Below, one piece after another: positions 1 to 11,781 of a stretch of DNA of 11,781 nt. Source of the DNA: a virus. The first letter of the stretch is position 1. Each line of letters starts with the position of its first letter. Both the position numbers and the translations under genes were made by a program. The stretch covers positions 1 to 11,781 of the IMG/VR virus record IMGVR_UViG_3300021400_001206, one strand, 5' to 3'. The notes under the pieces are model-generated. The model did not search any database, was not told the origin of the DNA, and saw only the letters and a program-made list of their open reading frames with translations.

Positions 1-26
1 TTAAATACTATGAAAGGAATAAAAAC

Positions 27-233
27 ATGATTAAAGTATTTACTTTAAATAAAAATGGAAAAATAGAATTAACAGAAAAAGAATTAAAATAGTTATTAGA
101 TAATGTATATTGGGAAGGATATAGAGATAATAATAAATCATCTTGGACTTACACAACTCCATTAACTTACCCTTATTATTCAAATATAACAGCAGACTCA
201 ATTACTTTAGGATCAGCTATAAAGGAGGAATGA
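27..233 (+). CDS. Hypothetical protein of 68 aa (if it starts at ATG 27), with one internal TAG at 90-92.
   Basis: ATG at 27 is preceded by aaagga at 13-18, and the ORF ends at TGA 231-233. The frame is also open upstream to the window edge, so this may be the 3' end of a longer gene. The TAG at 90-92 is read through as protein-like sequence (ELTEKELKxLLDNVYWEGYRD). No family recognised. Confidence 0.5.
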
Positions 234-239
234 AATAAA

Positions 240-935
240 ATGAAATTTGAAAATACCGAAGTTTGGGGTTTTGAACATGCTTTAAGAGGTATGAGAAATC
301 CCAAAAATAGTTGGGATAAAAGTGATAGCAATTGGGAATAGCACCCTTATAATCCTATTGGACCTAATGATATGAAATTAGCTAGAGCTCTTATTTAGGG
401 TGGTCCAGAGCATCGTAAATTCTTACGTCAAATTTTTGTATCTGTTGATATTACCGCACCTTTATATTGGTGGAAATAGTTTGACACTTATAAAATTGGC
501 ACAGTCGCTAATAGTACGTCAACTATGCATAAATTAACAAGCAAACCAATCACTCTTGATTGTTTTGAAACAGATGATTTTAATTCAGATTTAGTTTATT
601 ATACTGAACCAAATCCATATTCTGATGTTTATATTGAAATGGAAAATACAACAGGTATGTTATCTGAAATCATTATTGAGCAACTTGAATTTCTTCGTCA
701 AAAATATCTTGAAACAAAAGATAAGAAATATTGGAAATAGCTTGTGCGGTGGCTTCCTTAGGGGTGGCTTCAGACTAGAACTTGGACAGCAAATTATGAA
801 GTCATTCGAACTATTGTTCATCAACGATAGATGCATAAATTAAATTAGTGGAGCGGTTTAGACGATCCATCTAAACCTAATTTTATAAAATGGGCAAAAA
901 CATTACCTTATGCTGATGAATTTATTTTTAATTGA
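240..935 (+). CDS. ThyX-fold (flavin-dependent thymidylate synthase-like) protein of 231 aa with 7 internal TAG codons and a degenerate RHR motif.
   Basis: RBS aaggagg at 222-228, ATG at 240, stop TGA at 933-935. In-frame TAGs lie at 339, 396, 477, 738, 759, 828 and 846, all followed by continuous protein-like sequence. From memory of Thermotoga ThyX, the segments GGPEHRKFLRQIFVSVDITAPLYWWKxFDTYKIGTVANSTS and LVRWLPxGWLQTRTWTANYEVIRTIVHQRxMHKLNxW align with the [41 protein letters not shown] and [36 protein letters not shown] blocks. The catalytic RHR is replaced by TYK. The track ORFs 525..740 and 625..843 are fragments or overlaps of this gene. Confidence 0.55.
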
Positions 936-960
936 AAAATAAAAAATAAAATGTTATAAT
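932..960 (+). promoter_or_regulatory. Sigma70-type promoter: -35 TTGAAA (932-937), 17 bp spacer, extended -10 TGtTATAAT (952-960).
   Basis: Read directly from the sequence. It shares the TGTTATAATATAA motif with four other sites. It would drive the small ORF 1002..1163 and the gene at 1176..1562. Confidence 0.55.
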
Positions 961-1001
961 ATAATTATAAAATGAAAATTATGTTATAGAGGAGATTAAA
1001 A

Positions 1002-1163
1002 ATGAAGCTCGAAGGAAATAGAAAAGAAAAGTTTATACAAATGCTTGAAAAAGAAATCTTTAATGACGAGAGTGGTTTTATAGAGAATTATGAAGAAGAT
1101 TGGTATGATTTAGTAATTTTCTTTGAAGATTTAAAAAATGGTCAAATTGTAATTGCATATTAA
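1002..1163 (+). CDS. Small hypothetical protein (53 aa). It is a paralog of the N-terminal domain of the next gene.
   Basis: RBS gaggag at 989-994, ATG at 1002, TAA at 1161-1163. KEKFIQMLEKEIFNDESGFIENYEEDWYDLVIFFEDLKNG aligns with KERFIEFVNELMEMADVNEWDDEERKDWKDAFDFFEELKNN in the downstream gene. No TAG. Confidence 0.55.
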   Translation: MKLEGNRKEKFIQMLEKEIFNDESGFIENYEEDWYDLVIFFEDLKNGQIVIAY

Positions 1164-1175
1164 GAGGAATAAGAA

Positions 1176-1562
1176 ATGGCTAAGACTAAAAAAGAAAGAT
1201 TTATTGAATTTGTTAATGAACTTATGGAAATGGCAGATGTAAATGAATGGGATGACGAAGAAAGAAAAGATTGGAAAGATGCTTTTGATTTCTTTGAAGA
1301 ACTTAAAAACAATAAAGTAAAAACCGCAAAAGAAATGACTGAAAACGGTGCTAAACTTCTTTCTTGGATGCAAGAGAATAAAGAAAAGATGTCAAATGTT
1401 TTTACGTCTAAAGAAGCCGCAGAAGGACTCTTTACAAGCGGTCGCTCCATTGCAGGAACCATGAGAAAGCTAGTAAATGATGGTTATGTAAAGAAAACTG
1501 GTAAAGACCCTGTCCAGTATTCATTAACTGAAGCTGGAGAAAATTATCAGTTTGACAATTAA
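1176..1562 (+). CDS. Small protein (128 aa) with a C-terminal winged-helix-like DNA-binding domain; a possible early transcriptional regulator.
   Basis: RBS aagagg, ATG at 1176, TAA stop. The C-terminus FTSKEAAEGLFTSGRSIAGTMRKLVNDGYVKKTGKDPVQYSLTEAG has the helix-turn-helix plus wing pattern typical of MarR/PadR-like wHTH domains. The N-terminal domain is paralogous to ORF 1002..1163. Confidence 0.7.
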   Translation: MAKTKKERFIEFVNELMEMADVNEWDDEERKDWKDAFDFFEELKNNKVKTAKEMTENGAKLLSWMQENKEKMSNVFTSKEAAEGLFTSGRSIAGTMRKLVNDGYVKKTGKDPVQYSLTEAGENYQFDN

Positions 1563-1580
1563 AAAAATTTTTATTATAAT
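1552..1580 (+). promoter_or_regulatory. Consensus sigma70 promoter: TTGACA (1552-1557), 17 bp spacer, TATAAT (1575-1580).
   Basis: Perfect -35 and -10 hexamers at optimal spacing, starting within the last codons of gene 1176..1562 and lying upstream of the RBS aaggag of gene 1620. Confidence 0.65.
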
Positions 1581-1619
1581 ATAAAAGTAAAGTTGATTTA
1601 ATTTAAGGAGATAAAATTA

Positions 1620-2621
1620 ATGAAAAAGAACGCAAGATTTATTAACACAGAAAGAATTGAAGGATATGTTTATAGTACAGGTAGTAATTTTAATCAGCTT
1701 TCTGAAAGAACAACAGGAGAGAATTCTAAGCATCCTGGAACAAAATATATTGCGGGAGACCTTGATATTGCTGTAGATGAATCTGGTCTAAATGTAGTGA
1801 CTATTCATTATACATATGTAACACCAACATATGGCAGTGGTCAGGTAAATAATACTTATACAGCTCTTAAAAGAATTATTGATAATCCAGATAAAATTTG
1901 GATTAATGGCGGTAAGGAAAATGCCTTTAAGGTCCAGTGTACTGGAGTTTCTATCGCAATCAATGATTTCATTGGAGCAGATGGAAAATTTGTTGCCGCA
2001 ATTAGAAATGAAGGTGGATTTTGTTCTATCGTAAATGAATTTGGTCCAGAATCAAATAGAAATACTTTCTCTGCTGATATGCTTATTACAAAAGTTACTC
2101 ATATTGATGCAGATCCAGATAAGAATATTGAAAATGATTTCACAACAGTTAGTGGAGCAATCTTTGGATATGGAAAAACAATTCCTGTTCTTCTTCCTGT
2201 TTCATTTACAGTTCGAAGCGAAAAGGGTATGGAATACTTTGAAAATCTTGATGCTACACCTTCAGACCCCGTTTTTACAAAAGTTTGGGGACATGTTAAT
2301 TGTATGACTGTTAAAGTAAAGAAAACTGAAGAGTCAGCTTTTGGTGGTGATTATGTTCAGGAGTCTGAGCGTAAGAGTCGTGAGTACCTTATCACAGGAA
2401 CAGCAAAAGTACCATATGACTTTGGTGATGAAGAAGTTCTTACTGCTAATGATGTAAGCACAATGAATCAGAATCGTCAGATTATGCTTGCAGAGGTTGA
2501 AAGCAGACATAAGGAACGCCAGGCAGAAAAGGCTGCAAATGGAGTAAGCTTTGAAGCTACTACAAAAGCTCCTGCCGCAACAAAAACAGCAGGTGTGCCT
2601 GAAGGTGGATTTGTATTTTAA
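1620..2621 (+). CDS. Hypothetical protein (333 aa). It sits immediately upstream of the Sak4-like ATPase. A possible ssDNA-binding or annealing partner, by position only.
   Basis: Long uninterrupted ORF with RBS aaggag at 1605-1610 and a TAA stop. No TAG. GC content is noticeably higher than in neighbouring genes. The C-terminal tail is low-complexity (ATTKAPAATKTAGVPEGGFVF). No family recognised from sequence. Confidence 0.8.
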   Translation: MKKNARFINTERIEGYVYSTGSNFNQLSERTTGENSKHPGTKYIAGDLDIAVDESGLNVVTIHYTYVTPTYGSGQVNNTYTALKRIIDNPDKIWINGGKENAFKVQCTGVSIAINDFIGADGKFVAAIRNEGGFCSIVNEFGPESNRNTFSADMLITKVTHIDADPDKNIENDFTTVSGAIFGYGKTIPVLLPVSFTVRSEKGMEYFENLDATPSDPVFTKVWGHVNCMTVKVKKTEESAFGGDYVQESERKSREYLITGTAKVPYDFGDEEVLTANDVSTMNQNRQIMLAEVESRHKERQAEKAANGVSFEATTKAPAATKTAGVPEGGFVF

Positions 2622-2637
2622 TGAGAGGTAATAAATA

Positions 2638-3678
2638 ATGGCAGATATTAATATTTTTAACATCTAGCCGCATCAGGTTAGCCGTAATCTAAGAGGATAT
2701 TCAATCTTCTTTTACGGCTAGCCAAAAAGTGGCAAAACTACAACAGCATCTAAGTTTGAAAAGAATCTTCTTTTAGCTTTTGAAAAAGGTTATAACGCAA
2801 TTCCAGGAGTTATGGCACAGCCTATTAATAACTGGGCAGAATTTAGAAAAGTTCTTCGTCAGTTAAAAGACCCAAAAGCTAAAGATATGTTCTATACTAT
2901 CACTATTGATACTTGTGATATTGCATATGATTATTGTACAAAGTATATTTGTGATAACGCCTTGAGACCTGATGGCGGTTATGGTGTAGACAGTATTAGT
3001 GATATTCCTTTTGGAAAAGGATACGGTCTTGTATCAAAAGAATTTGATGAATGTCTTAGATCTATTGTTATGATGGACTACGGTCTAATTCTTATCTCAC
3101 ACGCAACTGATAAAGTTTTTAAAGATGAAGCTGGAAATGAATATAATAAAATCGTTCCAACTCTAGACAAACGAGCCAATAATATTGTTGCACGAATGGC
3201 AGACATTATTGGATACTCAAGAATTGTTACTGATAAAGAAGGTAATAACTTAACAAAACTTTTTATGCGTGGTACACCGAGATATGAAGCTGGTTCTAGA
3301 TTTAAATATACACCAAATTATATTGATTTTTCTTATGATAATCTTGTTTCCGCCATAAGTGATGCTATTGATAAACAAGCACAAGAAGATGGAAAAGAGT
3401 TTTTTACAGATAAGAAAAACAATCTTTATGAAGATACAACTAAAGACCTTAATTTTGATGAACTTATGAAAAATTGTAATGATTTGATTAAGGGAATGAT
3501 TGATAATAATTCTGAAGAAGTGTTTAAAGAGTTTTATCAACCTCGTATTGTTCAAATTACAGATCGTTATTTGGGCAGAGGTCAAAAGATGAGTCAGTGT
3601 TCAAGAGAACAGGTTGAAGCTTTGTCTTTAATTTATGATGATCTTCTCTTACTTTCCAAAGAGCCTGCTTCAGAATGA
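2638..3678 (+). CDS. Sak4-like / AAA_24-family RecA-fold ATPase (phage recombination-associated ATPase), 346 aa, with 2 internal TAG codons.
   Basis: RBS gagagg at 2623-2628, ATG at 2638, TGA at 3676-3678. The N-terminus reads MADINIFNIxPHQVSRNLRGYSIFFYGxPKSGKTTTASKF. The Walker A motif (GxPKSGKT) is intact only if the TAGs at 2665 and 2719 are translated. Downstream motifs ITIDTCD (Walker B-like) and LISHATD resemble AAA_24/Sak4 proteins. The track ORF 2812..3678 is the TAG-truncated fragment and lacks the P-loop. Confidence 0.8.
2676..2723 (+). other. 12-bp stem / 24-nt loop hairpin inside the 5' end of the ATPase CDS. It spans the Walker A coding region and holds the second TAG codon in its 3' arm.
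   Basis: ggttagccgtaa (2676-2687) pairs with ttacggctagcc (2712-2723) with one G-U pair. The first TAG (2665) lies 9 nt upstream of the stem. The pentamer TAGCC occurs three times in 60 nt. Confidence 0.5.
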
Positions 3679-3692
3679 TTATATATTAAAGG

Positions 3693-3731
3693 CTTGTCAA
3701 AGTCCCGTTCTTTTGACAAGTCTTTTTTTTT
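3693..3731 (+). terminator. Rho-independent terminator after the ATPase gene.
   Basis: Stem cttgtcaaag (3693-3702) pairs with cttttgacaag (3710-3720), loop tcccgtt, followed by tcttttttttt (3721-3731). Confidence 0.8.
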
Positions 3732-3741
3732 ATGTTATAAT
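3713..3741 (+). promoter_or_regulatory. Consensus sigma70 promoter: TTGACA (3713-3718, inside the terminator's 3' arm), 17 bp spacer, extended -10 TGtTATAAT (3733-3741).
   Basis: Read directly from the sequence. It drives the zinc-ribbon gene, DnaB and the downstream operon. Confidence 0.7.
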
Positions 3742-3771
3742 ATAATAAGAAATTTTTTAAGGAGATTTTTT

Positions 3772-4287
3772 ATGGCTCATAAAGTAAAATGTTTATATTG
3801 CGGTGAGCAATTTGATCGAGATATAGAACCAACAAAACAAGTCTCCGCACGCAGATACGCTCATTTAAAGTGTTGGGAAGAACATCTTGCAAATATGTCG
3901 CAAGAAGAAAAAGATATTGCAGCATTTTATGATTATACTCGGCAACTATTTGGAGAAGATTATAATTATGTATTAACTAAAAAGTTAGCTGAAAGATATG
4001 TAAAAGAAAATCAATATACATATAGTGGAATGTTAAAAACTCTTAAGTGGTATTATGAAAAAGAAGGCCATTCACTTGATAAAAGTAATGGAAGTATTGG
4101 TATTATTCCTTATATATATAAACAAGCATTAAATTATTATTATGCACTTTATCAAGCTCAATTAATAAATAAAGAGAAGGATATTTCAAATTTTATATTA
4201 CCAAAAGAAAGAACTATAGAAATAGAATCTCCACGAGTGTATGTACGTCCGCCGCATTTGTGGCTAGAAGAAGAGGAGGATGAATGA
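3772..4287 (+). CDS. Zinc-ribbon protein (171 aa), translationally coupled to DnaB. A possible helicase loader or replication-initiation accessory (positional inference).
   Basis: RBS aaggag at 3759-3764, ATG at 3772. The track ORF starts at 3694, but that start lies within the terminator. CLYCGEQF...HLKCWEEH is a C2-HC zinc-binding motif. Stop TGA overlaps the DnaB ATG (ATGA at 4284-4287). Confidence 0.7.
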   Translation: MAHKVKCLYCGEQFDRDIEPTKQVSARRYAHLKCWEEHLANMSQEEKDIAAFYDYTRQLFGEDYNYVLTKKLAERYVKENQYTYSGMLKTLKWYYEKEGHSLDKSNGSIGIIPYIYKQALNYYYALYQAQLINKEKDISNFILPKERTIEIESPRVYVRPPHLWLEEEEDE

Positions 4288-5828
4288 GTTCAAAATATGT
4301 AGATGTATCTGCGAATATGCAGGTAATAGGAGACGTTTTTATAAATCCATCTTTATTAGATTTAGAAGATAAATATAAATTCAATGAACAAGATTTTCCT
4401 CAAGAATTTCATAGAATTTTATTTGGTTCAATTTATAATCTCCATCAATTAGGAGTAAAACAAATTTCAATTGAGGATATAGAAAAATATTTAGAACAAC
4501 GTCCAAAGAAATATGCAATTTATAAAATGAACAAAGGTTCTGAATATTTAGAGAATATTAAACAAATGTGTCAATTAGCGGCATTTGATTATTATTATAA
4601 TCGAATGAAAAAGATGACTCTGTTAAGAATGTATAATAAAACCGTTGGAATGAATTTATCTTGGCTTTATGATCCAGATAATATTTTAGATGTAAAAAAG
4701 AAAGAAGCTCAAGAGACATGGTTTGATAATACCCCCATTAATGAGATTGCTAATCTTATTAATGACAAGATAGAAGAAATAAAATCTAAATATGTTGATA
4801 ACTCAGAAGATGAAATCATTCAAGCTGGTGACGGTGCGTTAGCTTTACTTGAAAGATTAAGAAAAAATCCTGAAGTTGGTTATCCTTTATATGGAAGATT
4901 AGTCAATACCATTCATCGCGGGGCTAGATTAAAAAAATTTTATTTGCGGTCGGCCGCTACTGGTGTCGGAAAAACGCGTTCCATGATTGCAGACGCTTGT
5001 TTTATTGCTTGTAATAAACTTTATAATCTTGAAACTAAACAATGGGAAGATAATGGAACTCGTGAACCAACTGTGTTTATTACAACAGAACAAGAAGAAG
5101 ATGAGATTCAAACTATGATGATGGCGTTTTTAGCTAATGTAAACGAGTCTCATATTCTTGAAAATACGTATGTTGGAGATGAATGGGAACGCGTAACCGA
5201 AGCTGCGGAGATTCTTGAAAAAAGTCCGTTATATATTAAAAAATTACCAGACTTTTCATTACAAGATATTGAAAATACAATTAAAAGCAATATCCGCAAT
5301 CATGGAGTAAGATATGTATTCATGGATTATATTCATTCAAGTATGAAAATTCTTAGTGAGATTAGTTCAAAAGCAGGGGTTAAAGGATTAAGAGAAGATA
5401 ATATTCTTTTTATGATAAGTGTAAGAATTAAAGATTTATGTAATCAATATGGTGTATTTGTAATGTCTGCAACGCAGTTAAATTCTGATTATGTAACAGC
5501 TCAACAGTATGATCAGAATCTTCTTCGTGGCGCTAAAGCTATTGCTGATAAAATAGATTGTGGCATGATTATGTTACAAACAAGTCAAGACGACAGAGAG
5601 TCTTTAAAAAATATTGTTAATTCAATGGGTATCGAAATGCCTGATATAAAAATGTCTGTTTATAAAAATAGACGCGCTAGATATAAAGATATATTACTTT
5701 GGTGTAAATCAGAACGAGGAACTTGTCGTATTAATCCATTATTTGTAACTAATTATAACTATGAATTAATAGATATAGAAGATTTAAAAATTACAGTAAC
5801 ACCTAAAATAGAAGCAAGCGCATTTTAA
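4284..5828 (+). CDS. dnaB: DnaB-family replicative DNA helicase (514 aa).
   Basis: Walker A LRSAATGVGKTRSM, Walker B VFMDYIHS, SATQLN motif, and a DnaB-like N-terminal domain (FHRILFGSIYNL). No internal TAG. TAA stop. Confidence 0.9.
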   Translation: MSSKYVDVSANMQVIGDVFINPSLLDLEDKYKFNEQDFPQEFHRILFGSIYNLHQLGVKQISIEDIEKYLEQRPKKYAIYKMNKGSEYLENIKQMCQLAAFDYYYNRMKKMTLLRMYNKTVGMNLSWLYDPDNILDVKKKEAQETWFDNTPINEIANLINDKIEEIKSKYVDNSEDEIIQAGDGALALLERLRKNPEVGYPLYGRLVNTIHRGARLKKFYLRSAATGVGKTRSMIADACFIACNKLYNLETKQWEDNGTREPTVFITTEQEEDEIQTMMMAFLANVNESHILENTYVGDEWERVTEAAEILEKSPLYIKKLPDFSLQDIENTIKSNIRNHGVRYVFMDYIHSSMKILSEISSKAGVKGLREDNILFMISVRIKDLCNQYGVFVMSATQLNSDYVTAQQYDQNLLRGAKAIADKIDCGMIMLQTSQDDRESLKNIVNSMGIEMPDIKMSVYKNRRARYKDILLWCKSERGTCRINPLFVTNYNYELIDIEDLKITVTPKIEASAF

Positions 5829-5839
5829 GGAGGATATAT

Positions 5840-6052
5840 ATGCAATATGGTAAGTGTTATAAATGTGCCCATAATGGAATTTGCAGAATTTTGATGGCAG
5901 AAGCCATATCTTCATTAGGATAGTTTGTGCGACTTTTTAATAAAGCACAAACCAGAAAAACGGATAGTAAATGTATTTTACAAATAGATTATACTTGTGA
6001 AAATTTTGTAGAAAAGAATAGTAATGAAGATATACTAAATATACAAGAATAA
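5840..6052 (+). CDS. Small Cys-rich (zinc-ribbon-like) protein, 70 aa, with one internal TAG.
   Basis: Strong RBS aaggagg at 5827-5833, ATG at 5840, TAA at 6050-6052. The TAG at 5921 is read through. The product is MQYGKCYKCAHNGIC...KCILQIDYTC with two Cys pairs. An 8-bp hairpin begins at the G of the TAG. Confidence 0.4.
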
Positions 6053-6068
6053 AAGCGAGTACATTTTA

Positions 6069-6239
6069 ATGAAAAAGAAATTTAGAAAACCAAGACCACA
6101 ACCTCCTAAATGGTTCTGGGCTGATAATGATAATTGTTGGAATTGTAAATACAATCATACAAAATGTAATAGTTGTAAAAGATTAAAAATATTTAGAAAA
6201 AAATATAGAGATAAAAAAACAATAAAGGAGAAAAGATGA
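6069..6239 (+). CDS. Small basic zinc-ribbon protein (56 aa), translationally coupled to the kinase-like gene.
   Basis: The product MKKKFRKPRPQPPKWFWADNDNCWNCKYNHTKCNSCKRLK has a CxxC-x7-CxxC motif. Stop TGA at 6237-6239 overlaps ATG 6236 (ATGA). No TAG. Confidence 0.5.
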   Translation: MKKKFRKPRPQPPKWFWADNDNCWNCKYNHTKCNSCKRLKIFRKKYRDKKTIKEKR

Positions 6240-6643
6240 TTATTTGTGGTTTTCCTGGGGTCGGAAAATCTACCTTAGCAAAATTTTCTAATTGGATAGA
6301 TTTAGAAAGCACCCCATTTGAAAAAGATTGGGTTCGTTATGCAAAAGTAGCAAAACATATGAGTGATAATGGATATAATGTTATGGTATCTACTCATCCC
6401 CAGTTGTTAGAACAATTTGAACAAATGGAAGTAAGATATACTGTTGTAGTACCTCCTTTTACTGATGTTTCTATTTATAAAGATAGATATATCAAAAGAG
6501 GAAACAATATTGATTTTACTTCCTTAATTGAAATAAATTGGGATAAATGGATTGGAGATATTATAACAAAATCTTCAGTTAATAAAACTGTTGTAATATT
6601 ACCAAAAAATGGTTGTTTACAAGCCTATATTGAAAAAATATGA
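6236..6643 (+). CDS. P-loop NTPase, small nucleotide/nucleoside kinase-like protein (135 aa).
   Basis: N-terminal Walker A MIICGFPGVGKSTLA. The small size and fold pattern are typical of AAA_17/18 or dNMP-kinase-like proteins. Substrate unknown. Confidence 0.75.
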   Translation: MIICGFPGVGKSTLAKFSNWIDLESTPFEKDWVRYAKVAKHMSDNGYNVMVSTHPQLLEQFEQMEVRYTVVVPPFTDVSIYKDRYIKRGNNIDFTSLIEINWDKWIGDIITKSSVNKTVVILPKNGCLQAYIEKI

Positions 6644-6737
6644 AAATATATAAAGAATTAAAATACTTATGGAGTTAGTTAGGTTTTGTACTATGGTGCG
6701 GGAATTGGAGGAAAGCTGAGGAAACTTGTCAAAAAAT

Positions 6738-6746
6738 TGATATAAT
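6738..6746 (+). promoter_or_regulatory. Possible extended -10 element TGaTATAAT upstream of the primase gene, with no good -35.
   Basis: tgatataat at 6738-6746. The nearest -35-like hexamer, ttgtca at 6726-6731, is only 9 bp away. Weak call. Confidence 0.25.
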
Positions 6747-6804
6747 CGCAAAACAACATCCAATTATAAAATTTTTTGCCATGATATTACATTAAGGAAT
6801 TGAT

Positions 6805-7902
6805 ATGAAATTTAAATATGATAAAGACATTTTAAAAGAAAACTTATCAATAGAAGAAGTATTTGATTTAGTTAGTGAGTTAGGCGGTGAACCAATTATG
6901 GGTAATGGATTATTTACCGCCCGCACTATCTGTCATGGCGGCGATAGTCACAAACTTTATTATTATGAAAATACTCATTTATTTCATTGTTATACAGGAT
7001 GCGGGGACGCATCATTTGATATATATGATTTAGTTTTAAGAGTAAATAAAACTGCTGGAATTGAAAGTTTTTCTCTTTCCAGAGCAATATCTTTTGTAGC
7101 TAGATATTTTGGATATACAGCTGAAATATTTGATTTTGAAGATAATCAAGATGTTAGTGAAGACTGGAAAATTATTAATAATTTTAAAAGAAATAGAGAA
7201 AAATCTCAACCACAAATTATAGAATTAAAAACTTATGATGATAAAATATTAAAATATTTACCTCATCCCCATATCTTACCGTGGGAGAAAGAAGATATAA
7301 CATTTGATATAATGGAATCAAGAGGTATATGTTATAATCCAATAAGCGAAGGAATTGTTATTCCACATTATGATATAGATAATAAATTAATTGGGATTCG
7401 AGAAAGAACTCTTATAAAAGAAAATGAAATATATGGCAAATATCGTCCAGCTATAATTGGTGGCAAGATGTATAACCACCCGCTCGGTTTTTCACTCTAT
7501 AACCTCAACAATAGCAAAAAAGCAATTTCTATATTTCAAAAAGTAATTGTTTTTGAAGGTGAAAAAAGTTGTCTTAAATATGCTTCTTATTTTGGTAAAG
7601 ATTCAGATATTAGTGTAGCATGTTGCGGTAGTAATTTAATTAATTATCAAGTTAAACTACTTTTATCTCTTGGAGTAAAAGAAATTATTATTGCACTTGA
7701 TAAACAGTTTCAAAAAATTGGTGATAACGAATGGCAAAAATGGGTTATTAAATTAAAAACTTTATATAATAAGTATGGTAATTATGTAAATATTAGTTAT
7801 ATGTTTGATAAAGATAATTTGCTTGGATATAAAGATTCGCCAATAGATTGTGGGAAGGATACGTTTTTAGAATTATTTAAAAGGAGAGTTACAATAGAAT
7901 GA
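6805..7902 (+). CDS. DNA primase with CHC2 zinc finger and TOPRIM domain (365 aa).
   Basis: CHGGDSHKLYYYENTHLFHCYTGCG matches the DnaG-type CHC2 zinc-binding signature. VIVFEGEKSCLKYA (TOPRIM glutamate) and IIALDKQ are also present. RBS taaggaa. Stop TGA overlaps the next ATG (ATGA at 7899). Confidence 0.85.
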   Translation: MKFKYDKDILKENLSIEEVFDLVSELGGEPIMGNGLFTARTICHGGDSHKLYYYENTHLFHCYTGCGDASFDIYDLVLRVNKTAGIESFSLSRAISFVARYFGYTAEIFDFEDNQDVSEDWKIINNFKRNREKSQPQIIELKTYDDKILKYLPHPHILPWEKEDITFDIMESRGICYNPISEGIVIPHYDIDNKLIGIRERTLIKENEIYGKYRPAIIGGKMYNHPLGFSLYNLNNSKKAISIFQKVIVFEGEKSCLKYASYFGKDSDISVACCGSNLINYQVKLLLSLGVKEIIIALDKQFQKIGDNEWQKWVIKLKTLYNKYGNYVNISYMFDKDNLLGYKDSPIDCGKDTFLELFKRRVTIE

Positions 7903-8699
7903 ATGCAAATCCGTGGAGACATAAAGAAGATAATAAAATAAAAGCACAAAAACAAATTAAATACATGGATGAGAACTTTGCTAATGAAACTGCGGAGGCC
8001 GTCGCTAATACAGTTATATATACTGGTCCTGTAGATATATGGGATTGGACTAAAAATGGTTTTAATCCAGTCCCCTATTCACAATTACTTGATATGGGTA
8101 CTGTTGATGCGATTTTTCATGTTCGAGAAGTCTTAGGAGAAGATAATAAAGAAGTTAAAGTTGCTGCGCTCAACTTTGCGTCATATAGAAATCCTGGTGG
8201 GAAATTTGTTGATGGTAGTAATGCTCAAGAAGAATGTCTATGTCATGAATCTAATCTTTATAATATTTTAAGAAACTTCACATCATATTATAGAGAAAAT
8301 AATTCTAAGCCAAATAAAAATCTTTATACTGATAGAGCCTTATATTCTCCAGATGTGATTTTTAACAAAGGAAATCATATAGTTAAAGCAGATGTAATTA
8401 CTTGTGCCTCTCCAAATTGGACTGCTGCACGTAAATGGAATGTTTCTCAAGTTGAAAATACTCTTGTATTAGCTCAACGTATTCAGTTTATTAAAGATAT
8501 TGCAGAACTTGAAGCAGTTGATATTCTTATTCTTGGGGCTTGGGGATGTGGAGTATTCGGACAAAATCCAAGAACTGTTGCAAAATTATTTGATTTTATT
8601 TTTAGAGAAAGTGAAATTAAAAATATTGTATATGCAGTTCCTGGAGGATTAAATTCTGATAATTTTAAAGCCTTTGACGAATGTATTAGAAAGAGTTGA
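7899..8699 (+). CDS. Bacterial-type poly(ADP-ribose) glycohydrolase-like macrodomain protein (DUF2263 / TIGR02452 family), 266 aa.
   Basis: ALNFASYRNPGGKFVDGSNAQEECLCHESNLY matches the microbial PARG signature (NFAS...PGG-x8-QEE). LILGAWGCGVFGQNP is the macrodomain diphosphate-binding loop. No TAG. TGA stop. Confidence 0.85.
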   Translation: MNANPWRHKEDNKIKAQKQIKYMDENFANETAEAVANTVIYTGPVDIWDWTKNGFNPVPYSQLLDMGTVDAIFHVREVLGEDNKEVKVAALNFASYRNPGGKFVDGSNAQEECLCHESNLYNILRNFTSYYRENNSKPNKNLYTDRALYSPDVIFNKGNHIVKADVITCASPNWTAARKWNVSQVENTLVLAQRIQFIKDIAELEAVDILILGAWGCGVFGQNPRTVAKLFDFIFRESEIKNIVYAVPGGLNSDNFKAFDECIRKS

Positions 8700-8721
8700 C
8701 TTGACAACTCTTTCTTTTTTT
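8691..8721 (+). terminator. Rho-independent terminator after the PARG-like gene.
   Basis: aagagttg (8691-8698) pairs with caactctt (8705-8712), loop acttga, followed by tctttttttt. Confidence 0.75.
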
Positions 8722-8729
8722 GTTATAAT
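8701..8729 (+). promoter_or_regulatory. Consensus sigma70 promoter: TTGACA (8701-8706, in the terminator loop/stem), 17 bp spacer, extended -10 TGtTATAAT (8721-8729).
   Basis: Read directly from the sequence. It drives the RecJ-like gene. Confidence 0.7.
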
Positions 8730-8768
8730 ATAAAGTAGAAATATTATAAAATTAAAGGAAGAAAATAT

Positions 8769-10571
8769 ATGAAATATGAATTAATAAATAAACCAAATGA
8801 AAACTTTTCAACAATACAACAAATATTATATAATAGAGGAATTGCGAAAGATGAAATTTTACATTATGTAAATCTATCTGATTAGGATATTAATTCCCCA
8901 TTGTCTTTAGGAGAAACAAATCTCAAAAATGGGTTAATGGCTATTATTAATACTGTAAAAGAAAATGCTGATGCTTTAGTAATTGTAGACTGTGATTGTG
9001 ATGGTTACACATCTGCAGCTCTTCTTATTAATTATTTATATAAAATATTTCCCACTTGGGTCACTAATCATTTAGACTGGTACATGCATGATAGTAAGCA
9101 ACATGGGTTAAGTGATTGTATTGATTTTGTATTAGCTCATAATCCAAGGCTTGTGATTTGTCCAGATTCAAGTAGTAATGATTATAGTTATCATAAGACA
9201 TTAGCAGATAAAAATATTCAAGTATTAGTTTTAGATCATCACTTAGCAGATCGTATTAGTGAAAATGCTATTATTATTAATAATCAATTATCAGATTATC
9301 CTAATAAAGAATTATCTGGTGTTGGAGTCGTATGGCAATTTTGTCGATATATAGATAGATTTTTTTCTAATCCAAAAAATTATAAAATATGTAAAATGGC
9401 AGATGAATTTTTAGATTTAGTTGCTCTTGGGAATTGCGGTGATATGATGTCATTACGGTCTTTTGAAACTCGTTATCTAATTACAAAAGGGTTTAAAAAA
9501 GAAAATATTAAAAACCCTTTTATTGATTATATGATTGATAAAAACTCATTTCCTTTATCAAAAGCAGATTATGTATCATCAAATCCTGATATGGGATGCA
9601 CATCTATGGGCGCTGCATTTTTTATTGTACCATTTGTTAATGCTATTACTAGAAGTGGAACGATAGAATAGAAAAACTTACTTTTTAATTCTATGTTAAA
9701 TCATAAAGCTTTTACAGAAGTTATTTCAAACAAGCGTGGGCATAAATTAGGTTAGAAAGAAAAATTAATTTTACAAGCAATTAGAACAGTTACGAATGTT
9801 AAAAATAGACAAACGAGAGCAGAAGATACAGGATTAGATATGTTAGAGAAAATGATTGAAACTAATCATATGCTTAATCATAAAATTCTTTTATTCTTAT
9901 TAGAGCCTAATAAAATTGATCCTGAAATTCGTGGTTTAATTGCAAATAAATTTATGGCAAAATATCAAAGACCTTGTTGTCTATTAACTAAAACTAATAG
10001 AAATGGCAAAGAAACTTATGAAGGCTCTATGCGTGGATATACAAAAACTGGAATTGACAGTTTTAAAGAAGTGCTTGAACAATGCCCAGGAGTTTTATAT
10101 GTAGAAGGACATGATAACGCGGCTGGGCTTGGTATAGAAGCAGATCATGTAAATGATTTTCTTTATAAGATTGATTAGCTTCTTGAAGATGTCTCTGTTG
10201 AACCTATTTATAGAATTGATTATAATTTTAATGAAAAAGAAAACAACAATCAGCGCATTTTAGATATTGCAGATATGAATGACTATTGGGGTCAAGATGT
10301 AGATAGAGCTTATGTAAATATTAATTTTAAAGTTACTGATTCTAATTTTAAAGTTATGAAAAGCAATACTTTAAAATTTAATTTACCTAACGGATTATCT
10401 ATTATTAAATTTAATGGAACTGAAGAAGAAATTACTAGATTTACAACAACAGGGTATCTAGAAGTGAACGCTATTTGTAAATGCAATAAAAATTAGTGGA
10501 ATGGTTGCGTCTATCCGCAACTTATTATGTAGGATTTTGAAATTGTGGATTCTGCTAAATACTACTTTTAA
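8769..10571 (+). CDS. recJ: RecJ-like DHH/DHHA1 phosphoesterase (ssDNA exonuclease family), about 600 aa, with 6 internal TAG codons.
   Basis: ATG at 8769. In-frame TAGs at 8883, 9669, 9753, 10176, 10494 and 10530. True stop TAA at 10569-10571. RecJ N-terminal pattern ILYNRGIAKDEILHYVNLSDxDINSPLSL. DHH motifs IVDCDCDGYTSAALL and VLVLDHHLAD. DHHA1 motif VEGHDNAAGLG lies in the segment after the second and third TAG. The track ORFs 8901..9671, 9840..10178 and 10275..10496 are all in the same frame and are fragments of this one gene. Confidence 0.75.
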
Positions 10572-10601
10572 TGGCTCGGCGCGCAAACACCCGTACCTAG
10601 G

Positions 10602-10657
10602 AAGCAAAAATGCATTTGGATTTTTTTATTTGCATTTTTGCTTTTTGATTTTTTTAT
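10602..10657 (+). terminator. Rho-independent terminator after the RecJ-like gene.
   Basis: 13-bp perfect stem: aagcaaaaatgca (10602-10614) pairs with tgcatttttgctt (10631-10643). 16-nt loop, followed by a T-rich tract to 10657. Confidence 0.75.
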
Positions 10658-10673
10658 AAAAATTTGTTATAAT
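10645..10673 (+). promoter_or_regulatory. Sigma70 promoter: TTGATT (10645-10650), 17 bp spacer, extended -10 TGtTATAAT (10665-10673).
   Basis: Read directly from the sequence. It drives the NADAR gene and the downstream helicase. Confidence 0.6.
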
Positions 10674-10703
10674 ATATATAAATAAAATGTTAGGAGAATA
10701 AAT

Positions 10704-11156
10704 ATGGATATTGGAAGTGGTTCAGGTTATCCTGCAGCCTCATTAAGTAATTTTGCACCGCATCCTTTTATTATAGATGATGTACCTTGTAATTCAATGG
10801 AAGGCTTTCTACAATCTTTAAAATTTAAAAATATTGACATGCAAAAATATGTATGTTCTTTAGTTGGAAAAAGCGCAAAGTATAAAGGAAAAGATAAAAA
10901 ATGGTGGAAAACACAAACTCTATATTGGCAAGGTAAAGAATATAAACGTGATAGTCAGGAATATCAAATTCTTTTAAATAGAGCTTACAATGCGTTATAT
11001 CAAAATGAAGGATTTAGAAAAGCTTTAGAAGCTAGCCGTCCGGCAATCTTATCACACTCAATAGGGAAGAATAATCCTTCAAAAACAGTTTTAACTCAAG
11101 CAGAATTTGTGGGTCGTTTAATGAAGCTAAGAATGGGAAAAAAATTAGATGAATAA
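10704..11156 (+). CDS. NADAR-family (YbiA-like, DUF1768) ADP-ribose/N-glycoside hydrolase, 150 aa.
   Basis: SLSNFAPHPFIIDDVPCNSMEGFLQSLKF matches the YbiA/NADAR signature (SNFA-P...E..Q..KF). RBS taggag. TAA stop. No TAG. Confidence 0.85.
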   Translation: MDIGSGSGYPAASLSNFAPHPFIIDDVPCNSMEGFLQSLKFKNIDMQKYVCSLVGKSAKYKGKDKKWWKTQTLYWQGKEYKRDSQEYQILLNRAYNALYQNEGFRKALEASRPAILSHSIGKNNPSKTVLTQAEFVGRLMKLRMGKKLDE

Positions 11157-11171
11157 TAGAGGTGCATAGAT

Positions 11172-11414
11172 ATGTCAGATGAAAGTTTAAAAATTAATAC
11201 AATAAATGAAAAAAAATTAAAAGGCTATCAATATGATTCTTTAATATATAGATATATTCGAGCTAGAGAGCAAATGGCAGAATATGAATATCTAAGAGAT
11301 AGACAGAGCAATGTCTCTAATCATACTGAATGGACTGTGTATCGGCAAAGAGCGAATAGAGATATAATGCGTTTTGTTCAAATTTTAGATGAAGTGATTG
11401 GAGAGCATGAATAA
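11172..11414 (+). CDS. Hypothetical protein (80 aa).
   Basis: RBS agaggtg, ATG at 11172, TAA at 11412-11414, which overlaps the next start by 1 nt. No family recognised. Confidence 0.6.
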   Translation: MSDESLKINTINEKKLKGYQYDSLIYRYIRAREQMAEYEYLRDRQSNVSNHTEWTVYRQRANRDIMRFVQILDEVIGEHE

Positions 11415-11781
11415 TGATATTAACTAAAAAACAAGAGGAAGGATTAAAAACTGCTGTAGCGCGACATCGGGACGGAGAAAAATATACGGTGATTGCTGGC
11501 TATGCTGGAACTGGTAAAAGTACACTTGTAAGATATATTATTGATGCTCTTAATGTTGAAGAAAGTAGAGTATGTTATTGCGCTTTTACTGGCAAAGCTG
11601 CAGAAGTATTAAAGAAAAAAGGAAATAAAAATGTAGCAACACTTCATCGGTTGCTATATGAACATATTCCGCGACCAGCGGGCGGTTTCTTTAGAAAGCC
11701 GAAACCACTTATTGATTATGATGTAGTTGTAGTTGATGAAGTTTCTATGGCTCCTAAGTCTTTGATGGAGTTACTGTTTAA
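11414..11781 (+). CDS. SF1 RecD/Dda-like DNA helicase (AAA_30-type), N-terminal fragment; it continues past the window end.
   Basis: Walker A IAGYAGTGKSTL and Walker B VVVVDEVSM. ATG at 11414 in frame 2. No stop before the window end. Confidence 0.8.
   Translation, partial: MILTKKQEEGLKTAVARHRDGEKYTVIAGYAGTGKSTLVRYIIDALNVEESRVCYCAFTGKAAEVLKKKGNKNVATLHRLLYEHIPRPAGGFFRKPKPLIDYDVVVVDEVSMAPKSLMELLF

Follow-up and report, generated by a model that had tools for sequence, protein, structure and literature searches.

The locus analysed here is an 11,781-nt stretch of viral DNA (positions 1 to 11,781 of IMG/VR virus record IMGVR_UViG_3300021400_001206), referred to below as the window. It raises the question of what the amber codon TAG means in a phage that carries it inside conserved genes. 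An original prediction, made from the sequence alone, had proposed that TAG is translated, probably as glutamine (Gln; genetic code 15). The first part of this proposal was borne out, and the second was not. In the window phage, TAG never serves as a terminator and is used sparingly as a sense codon, and in the lineage of the window it most likely stands for glutamate (Glu), as judged from the residues found at the same sites in related phages.

The window is the yorF-to-yorL-type replication module of an SPbeta-like phage of ~110–140 kb from animal gut or rumen metagenomes. All long open reading frames (ORFs) lie on the + strand and the GC content is 28–36%. Once TAG is taken as sense, 15 genes are complete within the window; the final 30 bases of a preceding gene stand at its 5' end, and a helicase gene that begins in the window runs past the other end. 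The expectation that no complete gene ends in TAG proved correct: the 15 complete + strand genes end in TAA (8) or TGA (7), and the upstream GIY-YIG nuclease gene ends in TGA at position 30. Seventeen in-frame TAGs are spread over five genes, namely the small ORF g27 (27..233, 68 codons; TAG at 90–92), the ThyX-fold gene (240..935; TAG at 339, 396, 477, 738, 759, 828 and 846), the AAA_24/Sak4-like ATPase gene (2638..3678; TAG at 2665 and 2719), a second small ORF (5840..6052, 70 codons; TAG at 5921) and the RecJ-like gene (8769..10571; TAG at 8883, 9669, 9753, 10176, 10494 and 10530). As predicted, all five are mis-segmented under the standard code, and both the reading frame and the profile matches continue across the TAGs. 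The profile of phrog_6721 matches residues 2–229 of the 231-residue ThyX-fold protein over all seven TAGs (E = 1e-54). In the ATPase, the Walker A motif reads YG-TAG-PKSGKT, with the TAG as codon 28 inside the AAA_24 match and the other TAG 18 codons upstream. The RecJ-like gene is one frame with DHH (residues 70–221), DHHA1 (380–473) and RecJ_OB (499–589) regions, which the standard code splits into ORFs 8901–9671, 9840–10178 and 10275–10496.

Assembly error as the source of the TAGs was ruled out, because the same proteins occur in at least six independent assemblies and 15 of the 17 TAGs are kept in a relative. The window is identical to parts of European Nucleotide Archive (ENA) contigs in these assemblies, one of which (ERZ1756080 NODE_862) is 110,397 bp long with 324x coverage. 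ENA loci overlapping the window were used to extend the region to 30 kb. Its 29 genes end in TAA (19) or TGA (10) and none in TAG, while 34 in-frame TAGs, out of ~9,300 codons, lie in 10 of these genes and 385 TAGs are off-frame. The relative that shares 15 of the 17 TAGs is L001, an 83-kb ENA contig 97% identical to the window (proteins 89–99%). None of its 25 genes ends in TAG, and its database gene calls already read TAG as sense. The TAG positions are conserved among relatives spanning 67–97% identity. No gene for release factor 2 or an aminoacyl-tRNA synthetase was seen in ~30 kb of the genome and the tRNA-array regions of relatives. Two further TAGs of the window stand outside genes. One (8736–8738) is in the leader upstream of the RecJ start codon at 8769, and the other (11157) directly follows the TAA stop of the gp30.3 gene, forming a TAA-TAG tandem (11154–11159).

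Residue at the TAG sites

In 120 database homologues of the ThyX-fold protein, the true Gln codons of the window fell on Gln columns (115–120 of 120), and the TAG columns were mixtures of Glu and 'Q' or of lysine (Lys) and 'Q'. The 'Q' at such columns may itself be a translated TAG. Codon-aware alignments were therefore built at the DNA level, from 80 IMG/VR loci around the ThyX-fold gene and 50 around NrdD.

Three of the seven TAGs in the ThyX-fold gene stand on invariant-Glu columns. At 477–479 (YWWK-TAG-FDTYK), 82 sequences carry 22 TAG and 60 GAA or GAG (60/60 Glu) and no other codon. The TAG at 738–740 (YWK-TAG-LVRW) is matched by 6 TAG and 76 GAA/GAG (76/76 Glu), and that at 846–848 (HKLN-TAG-W) by 7 TAG and 75 GAA/GAG (75/75 Glu). 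The five invariant-Gln columns of the same gene are all CAA or CAG; under synonymous use of TAG for Gln, the hypergeometric chance of finding none of the seven TAGs on them is 1/792. At column 477, the gene tree requires at least nine switches between TAG and GAA/GAG, compared with 10–15 switches between GAA and GAG and 12–14 between CAA and CAG at invariant columns, which is about the synonymous rate. Moreover, among 64 diverse representatives of the family, Glu accounts for at least 90% of the residues at protein positions 80 and 203 (window 477 and 846). Of the remaining columns, 759 is mainly Glu (59 sequences, with Asn 6, Ser 6 and Gln 2), 396 is Lys (56) or Arg (13), 828 is Arg or Lys, and 339 is variable. 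The original prediction had placed one TAG on the Gln of a QxxRHR motif, as in canonical ThyX. This argument did not survive, since the protein has TYK in place of RHR and column 396 is Lys/Arg in relatives.

The TAG columns of the other genes were tabulated in the same way. In g27, column 90 showed 16 TAG, 7 Lys, 4 Gln, 3 Glu and 3 Thr in 35 relatives, and the invariant-Glu column 18 had 4 TAG and 31 GAA/GAG in relatives. The ATPase column 2665 had 24 Gln, 5 Glu and 5 Lys beside 15 TAG, and column 2719, the first variable residue of Walker A, 15 Glu, 10 Gly, 5 Thr, 2 Asp and 2 Pro beside 13 TAG. The columns of the RecJ-like gene were Glu 9 and Asp 3 (9669); Glu 13, Asp 2, Ala 2 and Gln 1 (9753); Gln 7 and Glu 5 (10176); Glu 8, Asp 4 and Gln 2 (10494); and Glu 4, Val 2 and Ile 2 (10530), with 8883 being variable. 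The small ORF with the TAG at 5921 was also called as 70 residues by the code-15 gene calls of L082/L093, and its column stands outside the gene family alignments. Where L001 carries a TAG and the window does not, the window codon is GAA (four times) or ACA (once), and never CAA or CAG.

To score these columns, a likelihood test was run with leave-clade-out profiles, for which sequences were admitted only if their identity to the target was below 80%. The window TAGs scored −1.86 nats per column for Glu, −2.28 for Lys and −2.68 for Gln, and the controls were decoded correctly (CAA/CAG as Gln, GAA/GAG as Glu, AAA/AAG as Lys, GAT/GAC as Asp). The log-likelihood difference between Glu and Gln, LL(E)−LL(Q), was +13.1 over 16 columns. 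Resampled true Gln codons gave −7.0 ± 3.2, with 0 of 20,000 samples reaching +13.1, and true Glu codons 17.5 ± 2.7, so that the TAG value falls within the lower tail of true Glu codons. A variant of the profile likelihood, in which the codon was masked in all sequences, was biased to Lys and Glu and failed its own controls; the leave-clade-out profiles were used instead.

A second test considered columns with at least 90% of one residue in the out-clade, in 153 loci merged by contig. In a set of 24 contigs, here called the E-set (the window phage, the 144-kb contig of L004/L125/L146/L281, L001–L003, L005 and others), TAG occupied 8 of 83 conserved-Glu columns, 0 of 31 conserved-Gln columns and 5 of 1,457 other conserved columns. 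In a sister lineage of eight IMG/VR contigs, the Q-set (L057, L098, L099, L100, L108, L131, L143 and L144), TAG occupied 10 of 32 conserved-Gln and 0 of 60 conserved-Glu columns. Counted as distinct columns, this is eight Glu and no Gln vs no Glu and ten Gln (Fisher, 2.3e-5). No contig showed both behaviours at conserved columns. Across all well-aligned columns, the best residue for the E-set TAGs (211 occurrences in 80 columns) was Glu, with LL(E)−LL(Q) of +0.87 per column (sum +69.8); the reference codons of this set gave +1.04 for GAA, +1.19 for GAG and −0.37 for CAG. For the Q-set TAGs (82 occurrences in 48 columns) the best residue was Gln, with −0.15 per column, compared with −0.26 for CAA and −0.46 for CAG.

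The majority residues of the TAG columns were Glu (32), Gln (9), Lys (6) and Asp (4). If TAG meant Gln, neutral CAG-to-TAG transitions would put most TAGs on Gln columns; the mutational logic therefore favours Glu. Pooled over all loci, TAG was present in 12.0% of Glu-majority and 9.5% of Gln-majority columns, compared with 2.2% of Lys- or Asp-majority columns. The similarity of the first two values arises because two lineages are mixed, and it was resolved by separating the loci. Two other approaches did not discriminate: the codon partners in the nearest relatives did not separate Glu from Gln, and the distant cultured homologues of phiCTP1, PMBT24, Fnu1 and phiCD211, tried as arbiters, were too divergent to decide between them. 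Taken together, the assignment to Gln was not supported for the window lineage, whose TAGs lie on conserved-Glu and on no conserved-Gln columns and are decoded as Glu by profile likelihood. The residue preferred at the TAG columns of the family alignments is likewise Glu. The two residues differ in mass by 0.984 Da.

Sister lineage, suppressor tRNA and alternative readings

The sister lineage, whose NrdD is ~75% and other proteins 40–56% identical to those of the window lineage, appears to read TAG as Gln on these alignments. Since the Q-set returned Gln under the same tests, it serves as a positive control for the method. Its suppressor tRNA was not found; no locus matching the tRNA pattern scan described below was related to the lineage.

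No tRNA or Rfam family was detected in the window and its 30-kb surroundings, and in none of the 130 related loci did ARAGORN find a tRNA with a CUA anticodon, tRNA(CUA), in the 10 kb flanking the ThyX-fold or NrdD anchor gene on each side; tRNAs of other kinds occurred near the anchors only in a handful of distant loci that are not recoded. A walk along the tail-fibre genes extended to a single contig. IMG/VR was scanned for a pattern combining a CUA anticodon loop with a T loop, which matched, by chance, the contig of the relative L078 (L270), where a 12-tRNA array includes tRNA(CUA). This array lies directly downstream of a gene for a sigma-70-type factor with Pfam regions 1.2, 2, 3 and 4 (L270 6001–6906, the same gene as L160 2059–2964). 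The sigma factor protein was then used as an anchor to recover the same region from the contigs of L004/L125 (L281), L026 (L277), L025/L096 (L279) and L044 (L282), in which the sigma factor gene lies at about 6001–6900; it was TAG-free in the two relatives checked (L160 and L147). L270, L277, L279, L281 and L282 each carry one tRNA(CUA) in syntenic position, upstream of and mostly adjoining tRNA-Met, with Rfam tRNA scores of 46–65 bits. The tRNA(CUA) of L281 (9640–9713) is CGCCCGATAGTGGAGTGGCTTAACACAGCGGTCTCTAAAACCGCGGATCCTGGGTTCGAATCCCAGTCGGGTGA. The sigma factor and the tRNA array may form a combined transcription and code-switch module.

The first pair of the suppressors is C1-G72, G1-C72 or G1.U72; most have A73, and they have U11-A24 and a D loop of 8–9 nt. 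The tRNA-Glu of these phages has a D loop of 8–10 nt. In their tRNA-Gln the first pair is A1-U72 or U1-A72, G73 occurs in two of the four, and the D loop measures 7–8 nt. The features of a Gln-type suppressor (U1-A72 or a weak first pair, G73 and a short D loop) are thus absent from the tRNA(CUA) of the clade. U1-A72 is a requirement of the bacterial amidotransferase GatCAB, which discriminates against tRNA-Glu by the additional base in its D loop (PMC2811023). By these rules, a glutamylated suppressor with a long D loop and no U1-A72 should stay charged with Glu. Hidden Markov models (HMMs) that we built for each isotype reached a cross-validated accuracy of 75% (Glu 21/23, Gln 10/19) and gave a clear Glu call only for the L282 suppressor (39.6 vs 26.9 bits). 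Overall tRNA identity was uninformative on the isotype of the suppressor.

Several other RNA genes were observed in the arrays. The E-set relative L277 has a tRNA with anticodon UUA (10087–10161, Rfam tRNA 51 bits), which would read TAA, the commonest stop in the window phage and L001 (35 TAA and 19 TGA in 54 genes). A full-length ROOL RNA (RF03087, 338 bits) lies inside the array of L270 at 9549–10175, a few kb from the suppressor tRNA, and transfer-messenger RNA genes lie within the arrays of relatives (L279 10791–11071, L222 5686–5940 and L294 3404–3758). In addition, the distant SPbeta-like relative phAss-1 (L145, OQ749652) has a second tRNA(CUA) at 12442–12532. It is 91 nt long with a ~17-nt insertion in the variable region, and its D arm, GUCUAAUGGUAGGAC, is tRNA-Glu-like. 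The Gln assignment published for phAss-1 seems to be based on only one suppressor tRNA gene, which is presumably not this one.

Could TAG still be a stop, making the five genes pseudogenes, split genes or artefacts of assembly, or could it be read as pyrrolysine or by leaky read-through of the host? Standard-code callers do produce fragments, both in the window and in the code-11 calls of L084 and L089–L092, and the regions around the anchor genes lack a tRNA as described. This reading is already contradicted, and we give it hardly any probability: frame, domain order and profile matches run on across TAGs that are conserved over a wide range of identity, no gene of the 29 ends in TAG, and the identical sequence recurs in independent assemblies. 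The tRNA(CUA) of the relatives is of canonical length and not a tRNA-Pyl (the 'Pyl' label of ARAGORN reflects the anticodon only), and the TAG columns are Glu, not Lys-like. Code 15 itself deserves more weight. All phage TAG reassignments described so far are to Gln, with proteomic confirmation in crAss-like phages (PMC9523058; 10.1101/2021.08.26.457843), phAss-1 has been reported as Gln (PMC10607447), and public databases already translate these contigs in this way. A Gln-type suppressor would then insert Gln at TAGs on Glu columns as tolerated Glu-to-Gln changes. Columns 2665 and 10176 are Gln-majority, and Gln is found at some TAG columns of distant cultured homologues. We nevertheless consider code 15 unlikely for the window lineage. 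It would need nine independent Glu/Gln changes at column 477, which never shows CAA/CAG or another residue, and it is hard to square with the avoidance of the invariant-Gln columns in the ThyX-fold gene, with the 32:9 excess of Glu- over Gln-majority columns, with suppressors devoid of U1-A72 and G73, and with a sister lineage that gives the opposite pattern at conserved columns. An ambiguous meaning, with only part of the glutamylated tRNA(CUA) becoming amidated or with two suppressors side by side, would yield a Glu/Gln mixture with TAG kept mainly where either residue works. The nearly equal pooled fractions for Glu- and Gln-majority columns, the slightly weaker conservation of TAG columns than of GAA/GAG columns, the elevated exchange between TAG and CAA/CAG and the two different tRNA(CUA) genes of phAss-1 would agree with this. 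Yet no contig combines the two behaviours once the loci are separated, each relative examined has a single tRNA(CUA), and TAG persists at sites where at least 90% of 64 representatives, drawn from a family of more than 4,000 clusters, have Glu, which argues that Glu is the main product. We therefore hold such a mixture to be quite improbable.

Glutamate remains the most likely meaning of TAG in the window lineage, and the following observations weigh against it. TAG was paired with CAA/CAG in 17% of nearest-neighbour events, a share that also speaks for code 15, compared with 2–6% for true Glu codons, and window TAGs account for three of these pairings, one at 2665 and two within the RecJ-like gene. 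Taken alone, the conserved-column counts of the E-set give p = 0.1. The distant cultured homologues of the ThyX-fold protein mix Glu, Gln, Asp, Lys and Arg at the TAG columns, and the short family g6236 has a TAG at a Gln-only column in three E-like loci. Apart from that of L282, the suppressors have Trp, Cys, Lys or Asn as the best-scoring isotype; Glu ranks among the first four in 8 of 11, and Gln hardly ever does. The suppressor is known from relatives of 84–89% protein identity or less, and both the charging mechanism and the timing model given below are what we infer from these patterns.

For the group as a whole, we tentatively suggest that one group of SPbeta-like gut and rumen phages has two amber codes, TAG for Glu and TAG for Gln, chosen by the determinants that the suppressor carries for the indirect Gln pathway of the host. 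We rate this as somewhat less likely than not. Both suppressors would be glutamylated by a glutamyl-tRNA synthetase (GluRS) that tolerates position 36, and only a U1-A72 tRNA with a short D loop would be amidated by GatCAB. The suppressor of the window lineage, with its long D loop and no U1-A72, would stay Glu-tRNA. If this is true, the group has a naturally switchable, virus-borne genetic code, and databases mistranslate the whole clade as code 15.

TAG use by gene and layout of the module

In the 30 kb of the window phage, TAG makes up 34 of 691 Glu-type codons and is confined to 10 of the 29 genes. This heterogeneity (chi-square 127.5) exceeds that of 20,000 simulations (mean 26.6, maximum 79). 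The TAG-bearing genes include those for RecJ, Sak4/AAA_24, the ThyX-fold protein, GIY-YIG, NrdD and the guanylate-kinase-like and FNT-like proteins, and the polymerase (1,321 codons), gyrase and ligase genes are TAG-free. Which genes bear TAG and which are free of it is for the most part the same throughout the clade. YorF, g1176, DnaB, primase and Dda have no TAG in 12–60 relatives each (57–61 for g1176 and YorF, 42 for DnaB and 30 for the primase), and YorH has one TAG in 46 relatives. The g6236 gene has none in the window, and 3 of 16 relatives carry one. The RecJ-like gene has 1–12 TAGs in 15 of 21 relatives and none in 6; the range is 0–10 for the ThyX-fold gene and 0–4 for AAA_24, and tail-region ORFs of relatives reach up to 14 TAGs each. 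The g1002 gene is TAG-free in the window phage and stands outside the family alignments.

These patterns would fit a timing model. Decoding would depend on the phage-encoded tRNA with anticodon CUA. The TAG-free genes would be translated in the standard-code state of the host, the suppressor tRNA would accumulate after them, and the TAG-bearing genes would be completed only once it is present. Translation would thus be gated gene by gene within one co-directional module.

The module begins in the window with the 3' end of the GIY-YIG nuclease gene (1..30, + strand; Pfam GIY-YIG, E = 1e-7), which in full has 313 codons with 10 in-frame TAGs (L088 7914–8855). After g27 and the ThyX-fold gene follow the TAG-free genes g1002, g1176 and YorF-like (1002..2621, + strand; the last at 1620–2621, with Pfam YorF matching the gene of a relative). 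The AAA_24/Sak4-like ATPase stands in the position of SPbeta YorG; its AAA_24 match (residues 20–222, E = 2e-35) scored 122.9 bits against a cut-off of 27, and the Walker A G-x-PKSGKT is present with x being the TAG. Next are the TAG-free YorH-like gene (3772..4287, +; Pfam YorH in the clade), the TAG-free DnaB-type helicase gene (4284..5828, +; Pfam DnaB_C and DnaB) and the second small ORF. A TAG-free block (6236..8699, +) comprises g6236 (phrog_4182), a primase-like gene (6805–7902, weak Toprim) and a microbial PARG-like gene (7899–8699), as matched by Pfam and PHROGs. The RecJ-like exonuclease gene, in the position of SPbeta YorK, has Pfam DHH (5e-13, 49.8 bits) and DHHA1 (6e-7, 30.3 bits) matches, both above the cut-offs, and a RecJ_OB match (6e-4, 20.2 bits) below the Pfam cut-off of 27. 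The window closes with three TAG-free + strand genes, namely the gp30.3-like gene (10704..11156; Pfam Phage_30_3, 7e-55), g11172 and the start of a Dda/RecD-like helicase gene (from 11414 to the window end at 11781; 393 residues in full; phrog_325, Dda-like helicase).

Upstream of the window, the 30-kb region holds genes for RNase H, GyrB, GyrA, an NAD-dependent ligase and the GIY-YIG nuclease. Downstream are a 1,321-residue PHP-type DNA polymerase III alpha subunit, the guanylate-kinase-like gene, NrdD, the FNT-like gene and NrdG. Megablast of the window against GenBank phages gave no match. The host is probably a member of the Bacillota. Relatives of the phage group in a genome collection (L354–L414) are whole contigs of ~100–150 kb binned in metagenome-assembled genomes (MAGs) of several phyla, with labels such as Clostridia, Lachnospiraceae, Bacilli, Treponema, Bacteroidaceae and even Absconditabacterales; these labels are therefore unreliable for host assignment.

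Two AT-rich stretches of ~160–180 bp (6053–6235 and 6644–6804) have stops in all frames within an otherwise tightly packed module, and they could contain promoters or terminators between TAG-free gene blocks. Compared with L088 871–5371, the region 755–6518 of L001 has extra small ORFs and a GIY-YIG/I-HmuI-like pair, and its GyrA is called as two overlapping pieces, a single gene in the window phage. These may be homing-endonuclease or intein-type insertions.

The ThyX fold proposed for the product of the gene at 240..935 was supported by structure prediction. AlphaFold2 with a shallow alignment gave a predicted local distance difference test (pLDDT) score of 45 and was unusable; a deeper alignment gave 95. 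With the latter model, the top 50 Foldseek matches in the PDB were all ThyX (E = 3e-8, probability 1.00, template-modelling scores 0.64/0.71). Pfam Thy1 gave no match to the window protein even at E ≤ 10, a sequence-profile search of the PDB also gave none, and weak Thy1 matches were seen in 11 of 64 family members. The protein resembles ThyX (Pfam Thy1, PF02511) in fold, and differs in having 13–17% identity and TYK...STMH where ThyX has RHR...SxRY. The RHR...S.RY signature of ThyX binds dUMP. The invariant residues of the family (D44, K60, R63, Y84, S92, S94, H97, R196 and H199) differ from the ThyX catalytic set. The model thus describes a ThyX-fold paralogue devoid of the signature, which is probably not a thymidylate synthase. 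No Pfam model covers the family, phrog_6721, which falls into more than 4,000 clusters at 50% identity.

Comparison with known systems

The gene order of the window phage (YorF-like, AAA_24, YorH-like, DnaB-type helicase, primase, RecJ-like, PHP-type polymerase) is like that of SPbeta (yorF, yorG, yorH, yorI, yorJ, yorK, yorL). The polymerase shares 40% identity with SPbeta YorL along 98% of its length, and 41% with its counterparts in Enterococcus EF1-type phages. Together with the Pfam YorF and YorH matches, this makes the module syntenic with SPbeta yorF–yorL. SPbeta differs from the window phage group in keeping to the standard code and in lacking a tRNA array; the group adds the ThyX-fold, PARG-like, gp30.3, gyrase, ligase and NrdDG genes, a sigma factor and 10–20 tRNAs.

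Phage surveys have described recoding only of TAG to Gln and of TGA to Trp (10.1101/2021.08.26.457843), and one survey predicted phage suppressors of the isotypes Gln, Trp, Ile and Tyr (PMC10879173). Our literature searches, the coverage of which was incomplete, brought up no phage code with TAG as Glu. If the Glu assignment is true, it would be a further natural reassignment in phages and a third amber meaning beside the known recodings. One codon would have different meanings in closely related phages, and the difference may come down to recognition of the suppressor by GluRS and GatCAB. Gene callers using table 15 would put Gln at all TAG sites of the clade, including nearly invariant Glu sites, with effects on protein families, structure models and proteomic searches; database translations with Gln at these sites are probably wrong for the window clade. 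For engineering, an amber suppressor that inserts Glu and functions in hosts with the standard code would also be of interest.

The code-15 phages (crAss-like, Lak, Garnet/Amethyst/Topaz and the phAss-1 group) share with the window phage in-frame TAGs in conserved genes and the absence of TAG terminators. They also encode a tRNA(CUA), which for the window phage is known from its relatives, keep some genes clear of the recoded codon and are proposed to use a translational switch (10.1101/2021.08.26.457843; PMC10607447; PMC9523058), by which recoding would hold back a set of genes until the suppressor is there (10.1101/2021.08.26.457843). They differ in reading TAG as Gln, where the window lineage would read Glu. 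Moreover, the TAG-bearing and TAG-free genes of the window are interleaved in the replication module and do not form a late block, and the suppressor of phAss-1 lies upstream of NrdD, whereas that of the window relatives adjoins a phage sigma factor. With a TAG-free replisome and TAG-bearing genes of recombination, nucleotide metabolism and, in relatives, the tail, the window phage would offer a clean case for timed translation gating, and the suppressor beside a sigma factor would likewise be useful for the idea that recoding gates translation.

Assignment of UAG or UAR to Glu is known only in some eukaryotes. In the nuclear code of peritrich ciliates (NCBI table 30), UAG/UAR is read as Glu, and UAR means Glu in Blastocrithidia (PMC12153298). 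Like these codes, the code proposed for the window turns amber into Glu by a tRNA with an anticodon that matches the stop codon. Unlike those codes, which are cellular and genome-wide, it would be borne by a virus, serve a subset of genes and have a sister lineage with Gln, and the bacterial host in which it is used would presumably have kept the standard code.

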